A stretch of 64,000 bases of DNA from Shigella phage SGF2, in the sequence record MN148435; one strand, written 5' to 3'. Shown here in pieces: positions 27,855 to 39,047 of the stretch (position 1 is its first letter; every line of letters starts with the position of its first letter). The translations under genes and the position numbers were made by a program. The notes below the pieces were generated by a model. That model was not told the origin of the DNA. It did not search any database and saw only the letters and a list, made by a program, of their open reading frames with translations.

Positions 27855-29699
27855 TCAATGGGTATGCATCCAGTTAAGTCCAATCTGACAATCAGAAGCC
27901 AGAGGACATTCCATGTTCAAATATTCACCAGCCTTCTTAACACAAAGCTCGGTGTGTTCTTTGAGTTTCTGTACATCATTACGGTTCACTGAGAACTGGC
28001 CCTCATCGTGCATATCAATTACCTTAGCACAACGAACCTTATCTTTCTCAATCCACTTGTTAAGGAACATCATAGCATATTTCATAACAACAGCACCAGC
28101 ACATTGAAGGAGAGTATTAAGAGCTTTATGAACCATAACTTTACCAGTGGCATCTCGTCTCATTGTAATCTTACGACCATCAACACCAATCAAGTATCCT
28201 TGAGCAGCTTTCTCTGTCATACGATCAATGAGGATTGCAATACATGGATTCTCTGCCAAGAAACGTGCTCGCATCACTGAACCTTCGTCAGCCCCACCAC
28301 CTACAATTGAACCAAGCTTAGCATCACCAGCACCATAGTTGAATGCGTAGATAAACGTCTTAGCGTTGTCACGAGTAGGAAGACCAGCAAGTTTCTGGTT
28401 GTGGGAGTGGATATCACCTTCAAGGAGAATATCACGATACATAATAGCAGAAGCTAAACCACGCTCTGCCAGAGCTTTCTTAGCTGGATTATTCTCTTCG
28501 ATTGCTTCAGCAAGCATATCCCTACACTCTTTAATGAGGTAGTGTGCGAGCATACGCAATTCTAATCCAGAACCATCATACCCTAAGAATACTTCTTTAC
28601 CAGCGGGTATGTAATATTTGTAAGCACCTACAGGTTTATCTTTCTTCCCCGGCTTACCTTTCTCATAAATTACGTTAGTACCTTTTCGTATATAACAACC
28701 ATCAGGAACAACGTTAGTAATAATGAAAGGACGAGAGTGATCATCATCTGAGTTATAGTCAGACTCAAACAAACCGCGACACTCATGACCAAACAAACCA
28801 CGGGAGGGAATATTAACCACGATACGATGTTTGAATCGAAAAGTCGGCGTAGCGCAGCTGTTAGCTTCTGCCGAAAGTTTACCATCTTCGCGTTCCTTTG
28901 CTATGAGTCCACTGATAAGACCTAGCCTGTGAGCCGCTACAACGCGTCTCTTAAGCAAACTTCCGACACTCCCTAGCTCACCCCCTAACCCTTCTTCAAG
29001 AGTCTCCTCGAGGTTTGTAGGAGCTGTAGGCCACTTGTTTGAGGTAGCTAGTGCTATCTTAATCTCATCAAAAGTGATAGGTCTACGTCGGTTAGGATTT
29101 AAACCTAAACCAAACACATAAGCCTTCATATAGTTCTTAGTTTTAAACCGAAAATGCTTCTCTAAGAACTTTCTAATATCAGCGTCAACCATCTCGGCTG
29201 TCTGCTTCTGTTTAGCATTACCTCGCATCCAAGCTGAATACCACGCTTGGTATGTTCCATACTTTCGCATATCTTTCTTGATTTCAAAAGTATTCCAAGG
29301 TTTCTTTGATACGTTAAACTCTGGAGGAAGAAAGCCCTCATCCATAAGGGCTTCTTTAACTCGTGCATCTTTCGATGGGTCAAAGTCTACATATTCAACA
29401 CAGGTGAATGCTCCACCAATGTCTTCTCTCTTAAGACCAACTCTATCACAATAGGCTTGAGGCCACTTCTGTAAAGCTCCAGACTTCTTAAATGGCTTCA
29501 TATAAGTAGAGCCATCTAGTCTCATCTTAGGTAAGAGAGGAATCAATTCTTTATCAATATTAACAATAATCTCTTTAAGGAGGTGAACATACCACCGAGC
29601 ATTTCTTCGGTTGAAACTCACTCCGTGCTTCGCTTGCTTAGAGATTATATCAGCGACAGTCATCTCTGTCAAAAATGGGAGAGCGTCCGGGTTGCTCAC
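27855..29699 (-). CDS. family A DNA polymerase, polymerase (palm/fingers) domain only
   Basis: motif A LGYDGSGLELRMLAHY, motif B RDNAKTFIYAFNYGAG, motif C VIDMHDEGQF; no exonuclease motifs in this ORF. Confidence 0.85.
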   Translation of the reverse strand: MSNPDALPFLTEMTVADIISKQAKHGVSFNRRNARWYVHLLKEIIVNIDKELIPLLPKMRLDGSTYMKPFKKSGALQKWPQAYCDRVGLKREDIGGAFTCVEYVDFDPSKDARVKEALMDEGFLPPEFNVSKKPWNTFEIKKDMRKYGTYQAWYSAWMRGNAKQKQTAEMVDADIRKFLEKHFRFKTKNYMKAYVFGLGLNPNRRRPITFDEIKIALATSNKWPTAPTNLEETLEEGLGGELGSVGSLLKRRVVAAHRLGLISGLIAKEREDGKLSAEANSCATPTFRFKHRIVVNIPSRGLFGHECRGLFESDYNSDDDHSRPFIITNVVPDGCYIRKGTNVIYEKGKPGKKDKPVGAYKYYIPAGKEVFLGYDGSGLELRMLAHYLIKECRDMLAEAIEENNPAKKALAERGLASAIMYRDILLEGDIHSHNQKLAGLPTRDNAKTFIYAFNYGAGDAKLGSIVGGGADEGSVMRARFLAENPCIAILIDRMTEKAAQGYLIGVDGRKITMRRDATGKVMVHKALNTLLQCAGAVVMKYAMMFLNKWIEKDKVRCAKVIDMHDEGQFSVNRNDVQKLKEHTELCVKKAGEYLNMECPLASDCQIGLNWMHTH

Positions 29700-29715
29700 T
29701 TTATACTCCTTTAAA

Positions 29716-30138
29716 TTATCGGTAAAGTAAATCTGTGAATGCTTGGTTATCTTCTACTACATCTAGCATGGTAGCTTCATCACTGTAAGCCCTAACCGTC
29801 CCGTTGACAACTGTCCAAGGAGGTGGTGGAGGTGGTGCATGGTTAGCCCTAGCTTCACGAGGTTGCTCTCGTACTAAATGAGCCACAACCCTTTGGTTAG
29901 CGACTTCTTCTCTTTCTCGGATAGCTCTCTGAATGTAAGCCAACTTCATACCCCAAGCTTCTTCAAACTCTTGAGGGTGCTTATCACTGATAACCACATA
30001 CTGACGTTCAGGGATACCAGAGCGAATCTCTGACAGTAGTTCATGGAACAAATCAAGTTCATGTTCAGTGAGATTCATTTCGATATCATCCCACTTAAGA
30101 ACTAAGAAACGGTTTTGGTGTCTAGCTGGTAATGGCAT
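29716..30138 (-). CDS. hypothetical protein
   Basis: 140-aa ORF with proline run PPPPPPW. Confidence 0.35.
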   Translation of the reverse strand: MPLPARHQNRFLVLKWDDIEMNLTEHELDLFHELLSEIRSGIPERQYVVISDKHPQEFEEAWGMKLAYIQRAIREREEVANQRVVAHLVREQPREARANHAPPPPPPWTVVNGTVRAYSDEATMLDVVEDNQAFTDLLYR

Positions 30139-30301
30139 TCTACTCCACCTCTACTTCAATGTAAGTTCTCTCGCCAACGTCATCTTTTAAGACCCATGCC
30201 TTGGCATCTTCTTCAGACTTAAAAGCTTTCACAACGCTGTACCCACCTTCCCATTCATCACCGAACCACCGCTGACCAACGTAAATATACTCTTTCATAG
30301 C

Positions 30302-37111: not shown

Positions 37112-37120
37112 TCTTATTCC

Positions 37121-38491
37121 TTAGTTATTTGTTTCCATGTCAAAAGAGATTCCACGACCCGCTTCATCGGCAAACCGAACTGTACGGGCTTGAGGTTCTA
37201 ATACTTCAGGGTTGTTAGCAATAAAGCGATCAGCGAGACTGCGGCTGACAGCCTCAGCGAGTTCCTCATGAGAAGGAGTATCAAGATCGGAGAGACTGCC
37301 TACCACATCTTGGGCCACACCTTCATCAGTCCACACAGCCCTAACAGGTGCGTTGATATCACCAACAGCAAAACCCTGACCAGAGAACTGACGTGCGCTA
37401 ACAGTTAAACCGTTTGGTCGACCACGAGAGGGTCTAGCCATCCATCGCTCCATAGAATCACTTGTAATACCAAGAGCTTCTTCAAAAGATGTTCTACGAG
37501 TAGGGCTTTCTCTTCGTGACTCTTGTGCTCGACGCATTGCAGGGGCTACAAAAACCCCTTCAATTGCATTGTGTCGGTTAGGTTCATCTTCCCGACCAAG
37601 GAGATCCCCTCCTGTATTAGTTGTTAAATTTGTCAACCCTTCAGACCAATACGCACGAATCTGACCAGAGCCATGAACACTTGACATTAACTGAATTTCT
37701 TCGTAAGGGATTCCAAAGAATCGACTCATGTCTCGGTTAACACAATATTGAGCACTTGTTGTATCCTCAACATGAGCAACCTGACCTCGTTCGTTGACCA
37801 GATGACTAACTGGTTGAGGTGTAGGAAGGTATCGAGTTTGTGCCATATATTGATATGCAACAGATGGAGCGGAGAATCTTAATACCTGTGAATTAGGCCA
37901 CTTCTTGTGAACGTATCTGATTTCACGACTAGAAACAACCACAGGGCAAGGAGCGGTCATAGCTAAATATCCATGAGGAGTCATGAATAAGCTGTCAAGA
38001 GTTATCGCACCACGGCACATCATAGGAAAATTATCCAATACCTCTTCAATAGAAGTAGGATAATTAAACATGAATTGAATGCGGGTTCCATTCCACTGAA
38101 ACTCAATAATATCAGTGAATGTTAATTGAGAACCCCCAGCATAGGATTCGTTTGTAGCTTCAGCAAGAAGGGATGCATACTCGATATCTTGTGACTCTAG
38201 CCATTCCTTCACATTACTTTCAATCTCTCTTCCAAGAGCTTGCCAACGATCAGTTGGGGTGAATGTGTTTTGAGTTATTGGTGTTTGTCCTCTGACAATA
38301 AAGATATCAATGTCATGTGGAGCTGTGTTATTAAGCACAGCATCTCGAACAGCCCCACCAGTAATGATGGGACAGATACCGTCTGGAACCAAGTTGTTGT
38401 TAATCAACTGTTCAATGAAGTGACGACCAACAGTGATATCAGGTTGTTGAGCAACCTTATCTTCAATTCGGTTAATCGGGATAACAATCAT
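37121..38491 (-). CDS. Pol-beta superfamily nucleotidyltransferase (CCA-adding/poly(A) polymerase-type head motif)
   Basis: ITGGAVRDAVL...HDIDIFIV; start MIVIPINR at 38491, 1 nt after exonuclease stop. Confidence 0.5.
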   Translation of the reverse strand: MIVIPINRIEDKVAQQPDITVGRHFIEQLINNNLVPDGICPIITGGAVRDAVLNNTAPHDIDIFIVRGQTPITQNTFTPTDRWQALGREIESNVKEWLESQDIEYASLLAEATNESYAGGSQLTFTDIIEFQWNGTRIQFMFNYPTSIEEVLDNFPMMCRGAITLDSLFMTPHGYLAMTAPCPVVVSSREIRYVHKKWPNSQVLRFSAPSVAYQYMAQTRYLPTPQPVSHLVNERGQVAHVEDTTSAQYCVNRDMSRFFGIPYEEIQLMSSVHGSGQIRAYWSEGLTNLTTNTGGDLLGREDEPNRHNAIEGVFVAPAMRRAQESRRESPTRRTSFEEALGITSDSMERWMARPSRGRPNGLTVSARQFSGQGFAVGDINAPVRAVWTDEGVAQDVVGSLSDLDTPSHEELAEAVSRSLADRFIANNPEVLEPQARTVRFADEAGRGISFDMETNN

Positions 38492-38492
38492 T

Positions 38493-39047
38493 TTACATTT
38501 TCCAATATAATGAAGGTGGGTCGTAAGGGTCGAACCCTGTGAGTTCACACAAGTATTTATAAACCTTAACAGTTAAGTTAACGTCCTGTTCACAGTAAGT
38601 AAACATATCTTCAGTGAAAGCATCCCATGCTTCCTCTTGCTCACCATAGTCGCCCTTAAGTTCCTCTAAGAACTCACCCCATTGCTTCAAACCATGACCT
38701 CTTGGGCCATATCTAGGGTCGCCTTTCGGATACTCAGGACTGTCACCAATACGGTCAGGTTTAAGATATCGACTAAGACACAAGGTGTCGAAGACGTTAA
38801 AACGATAGTTGATCAGATTGGGATACATTTTCTTCAGAGCACAAAGGTCGAAGTCAATAATATTATGACCTACGAGCACATCAGCTTCTGTAAGTTTACG
38901 AATCCCATCTTCAATTTGGTGAGGCCGATAGCCCCACCTTTCACCAGTTTCAACATCGAAGATGTAAATACACCATACTTTAGTTATGTCATCGTACAGT
39001 GCATTACTCTCGATATCAAATGCAAACACTTTCTTTTTCTTTACCAC
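38493..39047 (-). CDS. 3'-5' proofreading exonuclease domain protein (separate gene of split family A polymerase)
   Basis: Exo I FAFDIESN, Exo [11 protein letters not shown], Exo III YCEQDV. Confidence 0.8.

Follow-up and report, generated by a model that had tools for sequence, protein, structure and literature searches.

The 64,000-nt stretch of the genome of Shigella phage SGF2 analysed here (sequence record MN148435; hereafter the window) encodes a T7-type family A DNA polymerase in two separate genes, a 184-aa exonuclease open reading frame (ORF), here termed exo, and a 614-aa polymerase ORF, here termed pol (Table 1). The 614-aa polymerase shares 98-99.7% identity with its counterparts in Escherichia phages Paul, phiEco32 and NJ01 and in many other Kuravirus podophages, and the 24 kb around pol are ~95% identical at the DNA level to several Kuravirus genomes, identities which place the window within the genome of a phiEco32-like phage (Kuravirus, a Gordonclarkvirinae podophage). 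The two-gene polymerase of these phages is already known. For phiEco32, RefSeq gives gp74 the label "DNA polymerase exonuclease subunit" and describes gp53 with the words "DNA polymerase; lacks 5'-3' and 3'-5' exonuclease domains". All LUZ24-group phages have been described as encoding the polymerase and the proofreading exonuclease as separate genes, with a similar organisation reported for phiEco32 and its 2008 genome paper given as the source (PMC3517423, 2012). Papers of 2012 and 2023 present the separation as common to the whole phiEco32 group and also to LUZ24-like, 7-11, Privateer and Vp_R1 phages. A preliminary description of the locus, drawn from the sequence alone, had recognised the split, with the two genes about 8.8 kb apart, but had treated it as new; the architecture is upheld by the complementary matches of the two products to T7 gp5, while the novelty is not.

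The 184-aa product contains the Exo I (D11-x-E13), Exo II (N62..D67) and Exo III (Y151..D155) motifs, and the residues D11, E13, H61, N62, D67, Y151 and D155 are invariant across 32 stand-alone homologues with identities down to 34%. It matches the Pfam family DNA_pol_A_exo1 (E 4.8e-9), is aligned by phmmer with residues 3-182 of T7 gp5 (E 3e-11), and retrieves T7 gp5 alone under an E of 0.1 when the PDB sequences are searched. The AlphaFold2 (AF2) model of the protein has a predicted local distance difference test (pLDDT) value of 93.6, and its first 27 Foldseek matches in the PDB all belong to T7 gp5 (E 1e-11 to 8e-10) and give way to other DEDD nucleases at E ~1e-5, with no Pol III epsilon chain among the top 50 Foldseek matches or among the PDB sequence matches. 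The homologues of exo in phages sit inside T7-like polymerase genes, and its close homologues are all stand-alone. The identity of the 184-aa protein as a DnaQ/Pol III epsilon-type nuclease unrelated to the polymerase, a possibility raised in the preliminary description, is thus ruled out, as both sequence and fold match only the exonuclease domain of T7 gp5. The bacterial Pol III alpha and epsilon (DnaQ) subunits likewise have a DEDD exonuclease encoded apart from the polymerase. That arrangement is alike in principle and not homologous, since the polymerase of the window belongs to family A rather than family C and exo is nearest to T7 gp5. The exo orthologue of phage SE131 (positions 13992-14498 of locus L013) is labelled merely "hypothetical protein" in RefSeq, which represents an annotation gap.

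The 614-aa product carries the polymerase motifs A (D375GSGLELR), B (R443DNAKTFIYAFNYG456) and C (H564DE), which align with those of T7 (RDNAKTFIYGFLYG) and include the tyrosine that T7 also has at the discriminating position of motif B. Across 61 exo-less polymerases, with identities down to 39%, 70 alignment columns are invariant and these include the residues of motifs A, B and C. The only Pfam match of this ORF is to DNA_pol_A (E 6e-23, profile positions 143-380), phmmer finds it colinear with T7 gp5 from ~289 to 704 (E 5e-32), and the AF2 model (pLDDT 91.6) has T7 gp5 as its best Foldseek match (E 5e-26). Exonuclease motifs were looked for within the 614-aa ORF, and it contains no Exo II motif and has no Pfam exonuclease match. 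Hidden Markov models (HMMs) of both proteins were built from their homologues and run over every one of the window's 432 six-frame ORFs of 50 aa or more; the exo model matched the single ORF at 38496-39095 (minus strand, E 3e-82; next best 0.86) and the pol model the single gene at 27858-29753 (minus strand, E 2e-251; next best 0.01), in agreement with the earlier assignment of the exonuclease motifs to the smaller ORF alone and of motifs A, B and C to the larger alone. The next best match of the pol model, at 55725-55994 (minus strand), is a 23-aa stretch resembling motif B (SRDVAKELMFAFLYNAEDETL) within a small ORF of the early region. A second polymerase fragment at this position was considered and the match is probably due to chance, as the ORF is a conserved early hypothetical protein common to Klebsiella T7-like phages.

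The two ORFs are complementary parts of one enzyme. On the PHROG 17 "DNA polymerase" profile exo occupies positions 668-826 and pol positions 836-1233, adjacent and non-overlapping, and in the nearest fused relative found, the 618-aa polymerase P0118 of an uncultured 45-kb phage contig, exo aligns with residues 5-154 and pol with residues 168-618, which locates the break within a linker of ~13 residues. All split polymerases begin within 13 alignment columns (228-240), which correspond to the start of the polymerase domain in fused relatives. Since the two ORFs tile T7 gp5, the 618-aa fused relative and PHROG 17 end to end, exo and pol are, on the alignments, the outcome of a gene fission at the interdomain linker of a T7-type polymerase. 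A frameshift, a sequencing or assembly error or an incipient pseudogene, or alternatively a split intein or trans-splicing that joins the halves, can practically be dismissed; the unusual architecture is all that speaks for such an explanation, and it recurs in dozens of independently sequenced phages, with invariant catalytic residues and with a ribosome-binding site and a GTG start of its own for each gene. A Pfam search revealed no intein (Hint) domain, and there is no spare sequence in which one could be accommodated, as all but ~16 residues of exo and ~11 N-terminal residues of pol align to fused relatives.

Table 1. Genes and features of the two-gene polymerase locus and its surroundings in the window (gp, gene product)
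Feature	Position	Strand	Basis and remarks
T7 gp4-type primase/helicase	39041..40831	-	Directly upstream of exo and overlapping it; Pfam DnaB_C and weak Toprim_2; annotated primase/helicase in phiEco32 and Paul
exo, 3'-5' proofreading exonuclease subunit; homologue of phiEco32 gp74; T7 gp5-type DEDDy domain	38493..39047	-	Pfam, phmmer, PHROG, AF2 fold
Interval between exo and pol	29700..38492	-	8,793 nt, ~22 ORFs: nucleotidyltransferase, dCTP deaminase, Dps-like, thioredoxin, ThyX, ligase Ia domain, PhoH, HNH, small ORFs
Phage thioredoxin, 91 aa, CAPC active site	34478..34753	-	Pfam PF00085, E 4e-13
Free-standing HNH homing endonuclease	30922..31413	-	Pfam HNH_3, E 3e-10; PHROG 59/99 HNH endonuclease
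pol, polymerase subunit; homologue of phiEco32 gp53; thumb, palm and fingers of a T7-type family A polymerase, without exonuclease domain	27855..29699	-	Pfam, phmmer, PHROG, AF2 fold
Lineage-specific helical insertion at the thumb tip of pol, residues 128-226	29022..29318	-	AF2 model and alignment
Separately encoded 5'-3' exonuclease; homologue of phiEco32 gp33	20793..21620	-	Pfam 5_3_exonuc_N, E 7e-6, under the curated cut-off

The comparison of gene order with related phages, which the preliminary description had called for, shows that the same split order recurs well beyond Kuravirus. The succession helicase, exo, cargo genes and pol is found in phiEco32, Paul, SE131, UFV-P2 and five uncultured contigs (L009, L010, L014, L016 and L018), with exo-pol gaps of 1.4 to 9.3 kb and with the 5'-3' exonuclease further on after pol. 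The exo gene stands directly behind the helicase gene in phiEco32, Paul, UFV-P2, SE131 and L014, and is separated from it by one to three small ORFs in L009 and L010. The distance from exo to pol ranges from 1.4 kb with small ORFs (L014), 2.1 kb with small ORFs (the LUZ24-like UFV-P2) and 3.2 kb with a dUTPase/dCTP deaminase and small ORFs (L009), through 6.3 kb with a ribonucleotide reductase and glutaredoxin (L010) and 6.8 kb with the same kinds of cargo as in the window in another order (the 7-11-like SE131), to more than 10 kb in the uncultured L008, where NrdD/NrdG and Dps are encoded and no exo occurs within 10 kb upstream of pol. For phiEco32 (7.9 kb) and Paul (9.3 kb) the gap was measured between the end of the exo ORF and the point where the stop-to-stop ORF that contains pol begins, while the 8.8 kb of the window run from stop codon to start codon. 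By this pattern of gene content the exo-pol gap behaves as a cargo site with variable nucleotide-metabolism genes.

The best 117 homologue clusters of pol are all exo-less. A neighbour-joining tree was built from 508 columns of the polymerase domain, with 100 bootstraps; it unites the split clades and a single fused clade (P0111-P0120) at 100% support, well apart from T7, ICP3 and the cyanophage S-B28, in which the split genes are adjacent. The split is old and widespread. The phiEco32/LUZ24-type split likely arose once; with only 31% support for the branching order in the tree, a single fission is favoured on the grounds of the shared breakpoint and the shared thumb insertion described below.

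The preliminary description had also proposed that the HNH endonuclease gene between the halves points to a history of insertion or rearrangement, in which case the split or the 8.8-kb separation would have been caused by homing-endonuclease activity, with the gene at 30922-31413 as its trace. Such an origin is very improbable, even though the gene does sit between the two halves and homing endonucleases and group I introns target the polymerase gene in relatives. Against phage Bas91, the HNH cassette (30935-31412) stands out as a clean indel of 478 nt between the gp58 homologue and a terminator-like hairpin, and its segment is fully covered in only eight of the 97 relatives matching the region and absent at the site in the rest. 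It is separated by 7 kb from exo and by 1.2 kb and four ORFs from pol, which is downstream of it. No HNH gene occurs at the corresponding site in phiEco32, Paul, SE131, UFV-P2 or the uncultured relatives, all of which have the split. No mobile element was found at the exo/pol break. The strong hairpin immediately downstream of the cassette (30884-30907, minus strand, 10 pairs and a T-rich tail) is kept in the HNH-less Bas91, indicating that the HNH gene was inserted just upstream of a pre-existing terminator. The comparison of the relatives thus identifies the HNH gene as an independent, sporadically present cassette unrelated to the polymerase split.

The insertions seen in the polymerase genes of relatives lie inside the polymerase domain and not at the exo/pol boundary. 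In Bas93 (positions 2837-3505 of L004) a 704-nt insertion at pol codon 452, within motif B (equivalent to ~nt 28346 of the window), holds an endonuclease VII ORF, and in PE006 (positions 3600-3787 of L003) an insertion at pol codon 564, within motif C (~nt 28009), holds a homing endonuclease. Both match the Rfam family Intron_gpI under its gathering score (Bas93, 43.9 bits, E 1e-8; PE006, 28.7 bits, E 4e-4). Neither element is present in the window, where the pol gene is uninterrupted. Many database homologues of pol with lengths of 449-457 aa resemble exon-1 products of intron-bearing genes.

A structural feature accompanies the distant split. The helices of the thumb insertion of pol (residues 137-218) are modelled by AF2 with pLDDT values of 85-97, and an insertion of 68-99 aa is present in all 31 split-type polymerases aligned, for some of which the distant-split state was checked directly, and of 69-99 aa at all nine confirmed distant-split loci. 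Among the IMG/VR and GenBank loci compared, the equivalent segment measures 5-18 aa at 69 fused loci and 6 aa at three adjacent-split loci. Neither the thumb insertion nor a further insertion before motif A has a Pfam match or a significant PDB sequence match. Residues ~57-108 of pol align with residues 262-337 of T7 gp5, the thioredoxin-binding segment, which is ~24 aa shorter in pol and is followed by the unrelated ~90-aa insertion. As the association may trace to a single ancestor, the link between thumb insertion and distant split demonstrates co-inheritance rather than function. It is conceivable, if rather unlikely, that the insertion is an adaptation to the detached proofreader, either as a docking surface for the exonuclease (perhaps via a C-terminal tail, GFDPxNPP, of the exo protein) or as a built-in or thioredoxin-assisted processivity lid. 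On this reading it would be the helicase, not the polymerase, that brings the exonuclease along, and the architecture of the replisome would be distinct from that of T7.

The closest counterparts of the arrangement are the orthologous gp74 and gp53 of phiEco32 and the corresponding pairs of all Kuravirus, which are in the same orientation; the phiEco32 polymerase is 98.4% identical to that of the window. The gene order is also that of the window, namely primase/helicase, exo, nucleotidyltransferase, dCTP deaminase, Dps, thioredoxin, ThyX, PhoH and pol, except that the window has no homologue of gp59 and that the HNH cassette stands between its homologues of gp58 and gp57. In the Pseudomonas podophages LUZ24, PaP3, tf and UFV-P2, where the genes are labelled "DNA polymerase part I" and "part II", exo similarly lies behind the helicase and an exo-less pol downstream, and they share with the window an upstream module of amidoligase, glutamine amidotransferase and gamma-glutamyl cyclotransferase genes. 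Their polymerases are 39-42% identical to that of the window and include the thumb insertion (69 aa in the LUZ24-type), but lack a 28-aa insertion after motif A, while their exo proteins lack the GFDPxNPP tail and their 2.1-kb gap of small ORFs is devoid of nucleotide-metabolism cargo.

A T7-like PolA is also divided between two genes, at the same domain boundary as in the window, in the S-SBP1-like cyanophages, where the split is adjacent and AlphaFold2 reassembles the two products into a T7-like enzyme (PMC10201439, Czernecki et al. 2023). The S-SBP1-like genes are adjacent or overlapping as the result of a recent +1 frameshift, rather than 8.8 kb apart, and in the adjacent splits of S-B28, L025 and L060 the overlap is 12-48 nt and the thumb segment is 6 aa, without the insertion. 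The overlap and frameshift origin, the absence of the thumb insertion and the separate branch in the tree mark the cyanophage split as an independent event.

The T7 gene 5 polymerase is the best sequence and fold match for both halves and, like the locus in the window, has a tyrosine in motif B and a gp4-like primase/helicase upstream. T7 gp5 is, however, a single chain of 704 aa in place of two ORFs 8,793 nt apart, so that exo and pol display T7-like family A motifs and have T7 gp5 as their closest solved relative without their domains being in one polypeptide. T7 gp5 also lacks the ~90-aa thumb insertion, and its thioredoxin is recruited from E. coli, while that of the window is encoded by the phage. 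The T7-like family A polymerases constitute cluster 5 of a published classification, with a thumb-tip thioredoxin-binding domain in ~29% of the cluster (PMC10201439). Thioredoxin accompanies the polymerase in all prolate-headed (C3 morphotype) relatives examined and has been proposed as a polymerase cofactor (PMC7881722), and the phage thioredoxin is, by analogy with T7, a candidate processivity partner of pol.

Taken together, it is very probable that the window encodes a two-gene T7-type polymerase derived by an old fission at the exo/pol linker, with the HNH gene uninvolved and with products that most likely form one proofreading replicase. An ancestral fused polymerase gene would have been split at the linker between its exonuclease and polymerase domains, with the exo gene keeping the ancestral position directly behind the primase/helicase gene and the pol gene now lying 8.8 kb further downstream on the same strand. 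Exchangeable nucleotide-metabolism and small accessory genes would have come to fill the interval. The two products, in which all catalytic residues are kept, would associate non-covalently into a T7 gp5-like proofreading replicase, which would work with the gp4-like primase/helicase. This assembly in trans, which the preliminary description had named as a requirement for proofreading, is plausible, given that the two genes strictly co-occur, both being present in every genome with enough sequence available, that the stability of PolA polymerase domains reportedly depends on the exonuclease domain, and that the S-SBP1 products are predicted to reassemble (PMC10201439).

Several points weigh against this reading. 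The exo gene is coupled to the helicase gene and not to pol; its GTG start, preceded by GGAG, overlaps the primase/helicase stop by 7 nt (GTGGTAA), from which translational coupling of the two genes is probable. Two terminator-like hairpins separate exo from pol, one at 34995-34967 after the Dps-like gene and one at 30907-30884, so that the stoichiometry of the two products need not be 1:1. The fused clade P0111-P0120 is placed as sister to, or nested among, the split clades, in an order with 31% support only. Finally, a literature search gave no biochemical report of exo and pol forming one enzyme.

The first two of these points, like the 8.8-kb distance between the genes, would also fit an autonomous exonuclease that forms no stable complex with pol. 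Such an enzyme would edit mismatched 3' ends intermolecularly or have a different role, for example in recombination, in the trimming of primers or in the breakdown of host DNA, and might be carried by the primase/helicase. The adjacency of helicase and exo recurs in relatives, and the exo protein has a conserved clade-specific C-terminal tail, GFDPxNPP, past the end of the T7-type domain (residues 171-179, window 38511-38537). This tail marks the exo of the Kuravirus/7-11-like clade and occurs in 41 of 50 close stand-alone homologues; it is found neither in fused relatives nor in T7, ICP3 or the LUZ24-like exo, and may be a docking peptide. Moreover, the isolated domains of the Klenow fragment are separately active, and editing by Pol I can be intermolecular. 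The co-occurrence of exo and pol, the specific relationship of exo to the exonuclease domains of T7 gp5 and the published observations on PolA stability and S-SBP1 reassembly argue against an autonomous enzyme, which is quite unlikely in comparison with the proofreading replicase assembled from the two products.

Among the genes between exo and pol, the list given in the preliminary description (nucleotidyltransferase, dCTP deaminase, Dps-like protein, thioredoxin, ThyX, PhoH and HNH endonuclease) is confirmed by Pfam and PHROG. The nucleotidyltransferase belongs to PHROG 12715 and has a weak PolyA_pol match, and its start is at 38491, two bases past the exo stop, which corrects the position 38548; the dCTP deaminase, the ferritin/Dps-like protein, ThyX, PhoH and HNH_3 all have Pfam matches. 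A 109-aa ORF at 32683-33012 (minus strand) consists of the N-terminal NAD+-binding Ia domain alone of an NAD-dependent DNA ligase (Pfam Nlig-Ia, E 8e-35), and is labelled plainly as "DNA ligase" in phiEco32 and Paul; it is another enzyme domain encoded by itself in the exo-pol module. Two further sets of ORFs have the look of tandem paralogues by eye: three consecutive ORFs of 65-69 aa at 35962-36577 (minus strand), all ending in ..KV.YY, and two consecutive ORFs of 84-94 aa at 30302-30842 (minus strand), both ending in ..FPKG and labelled "autotransporter adhesin" in some relatives.

Downstream of pol, the homologues of the ORF at 20793-21620 are annotated as exonuclease in phiEco32 and Paul, and phiEco32 gp33 is described in RefSeq as a separate exonuclease resembling the one of DNA polymerase I. 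The 5'-3' exonuclease is hence a third Pol I-type activity located apart from the polymerase gene. Within pol itself, codons 10-19 contain a promoter sequence that matches the sigma-70 consensus perfectly (TTGACA and TATAAT spaced by 17 nt, with an upstream TG; window 29644-29672, minus strand), in the same orientation as pol and downstream of its start codon; it is the sole 12/12 match within 14.5 kb. The sequence is shared without change by phiEco32, Paul, PE006 and Bas93. SE131, UFV-P2 and four uncultured relatives have no such promoter at this position, and a literature search for a sigma-70 consensus within the 5' end of pol found nothing. The position and orientation of this sequence suggest that it could drive the genes downstream of pol.

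As a discovery the split carries little weight, as it is annotated in RefSeq, goes back in the literature to the genome paper of 2008 and is a trait of the whole group. The points added here are the single shared breakpoint, the role of the gap as a site for nucleotide-metabolism cargo and the thumb insertion strictly tied to the distant split; they leave the overall picture unchanged and serve as handles for biochemistry. For annotators, it follows that such polymerases should not be called proofreading-deficient, nor their exonucleases "hypothetical", as in SE131. The phiEco32-like phages provide a natural system for the question of how a family A polymerase proofreads with its editing domain as a separate polypeptide.

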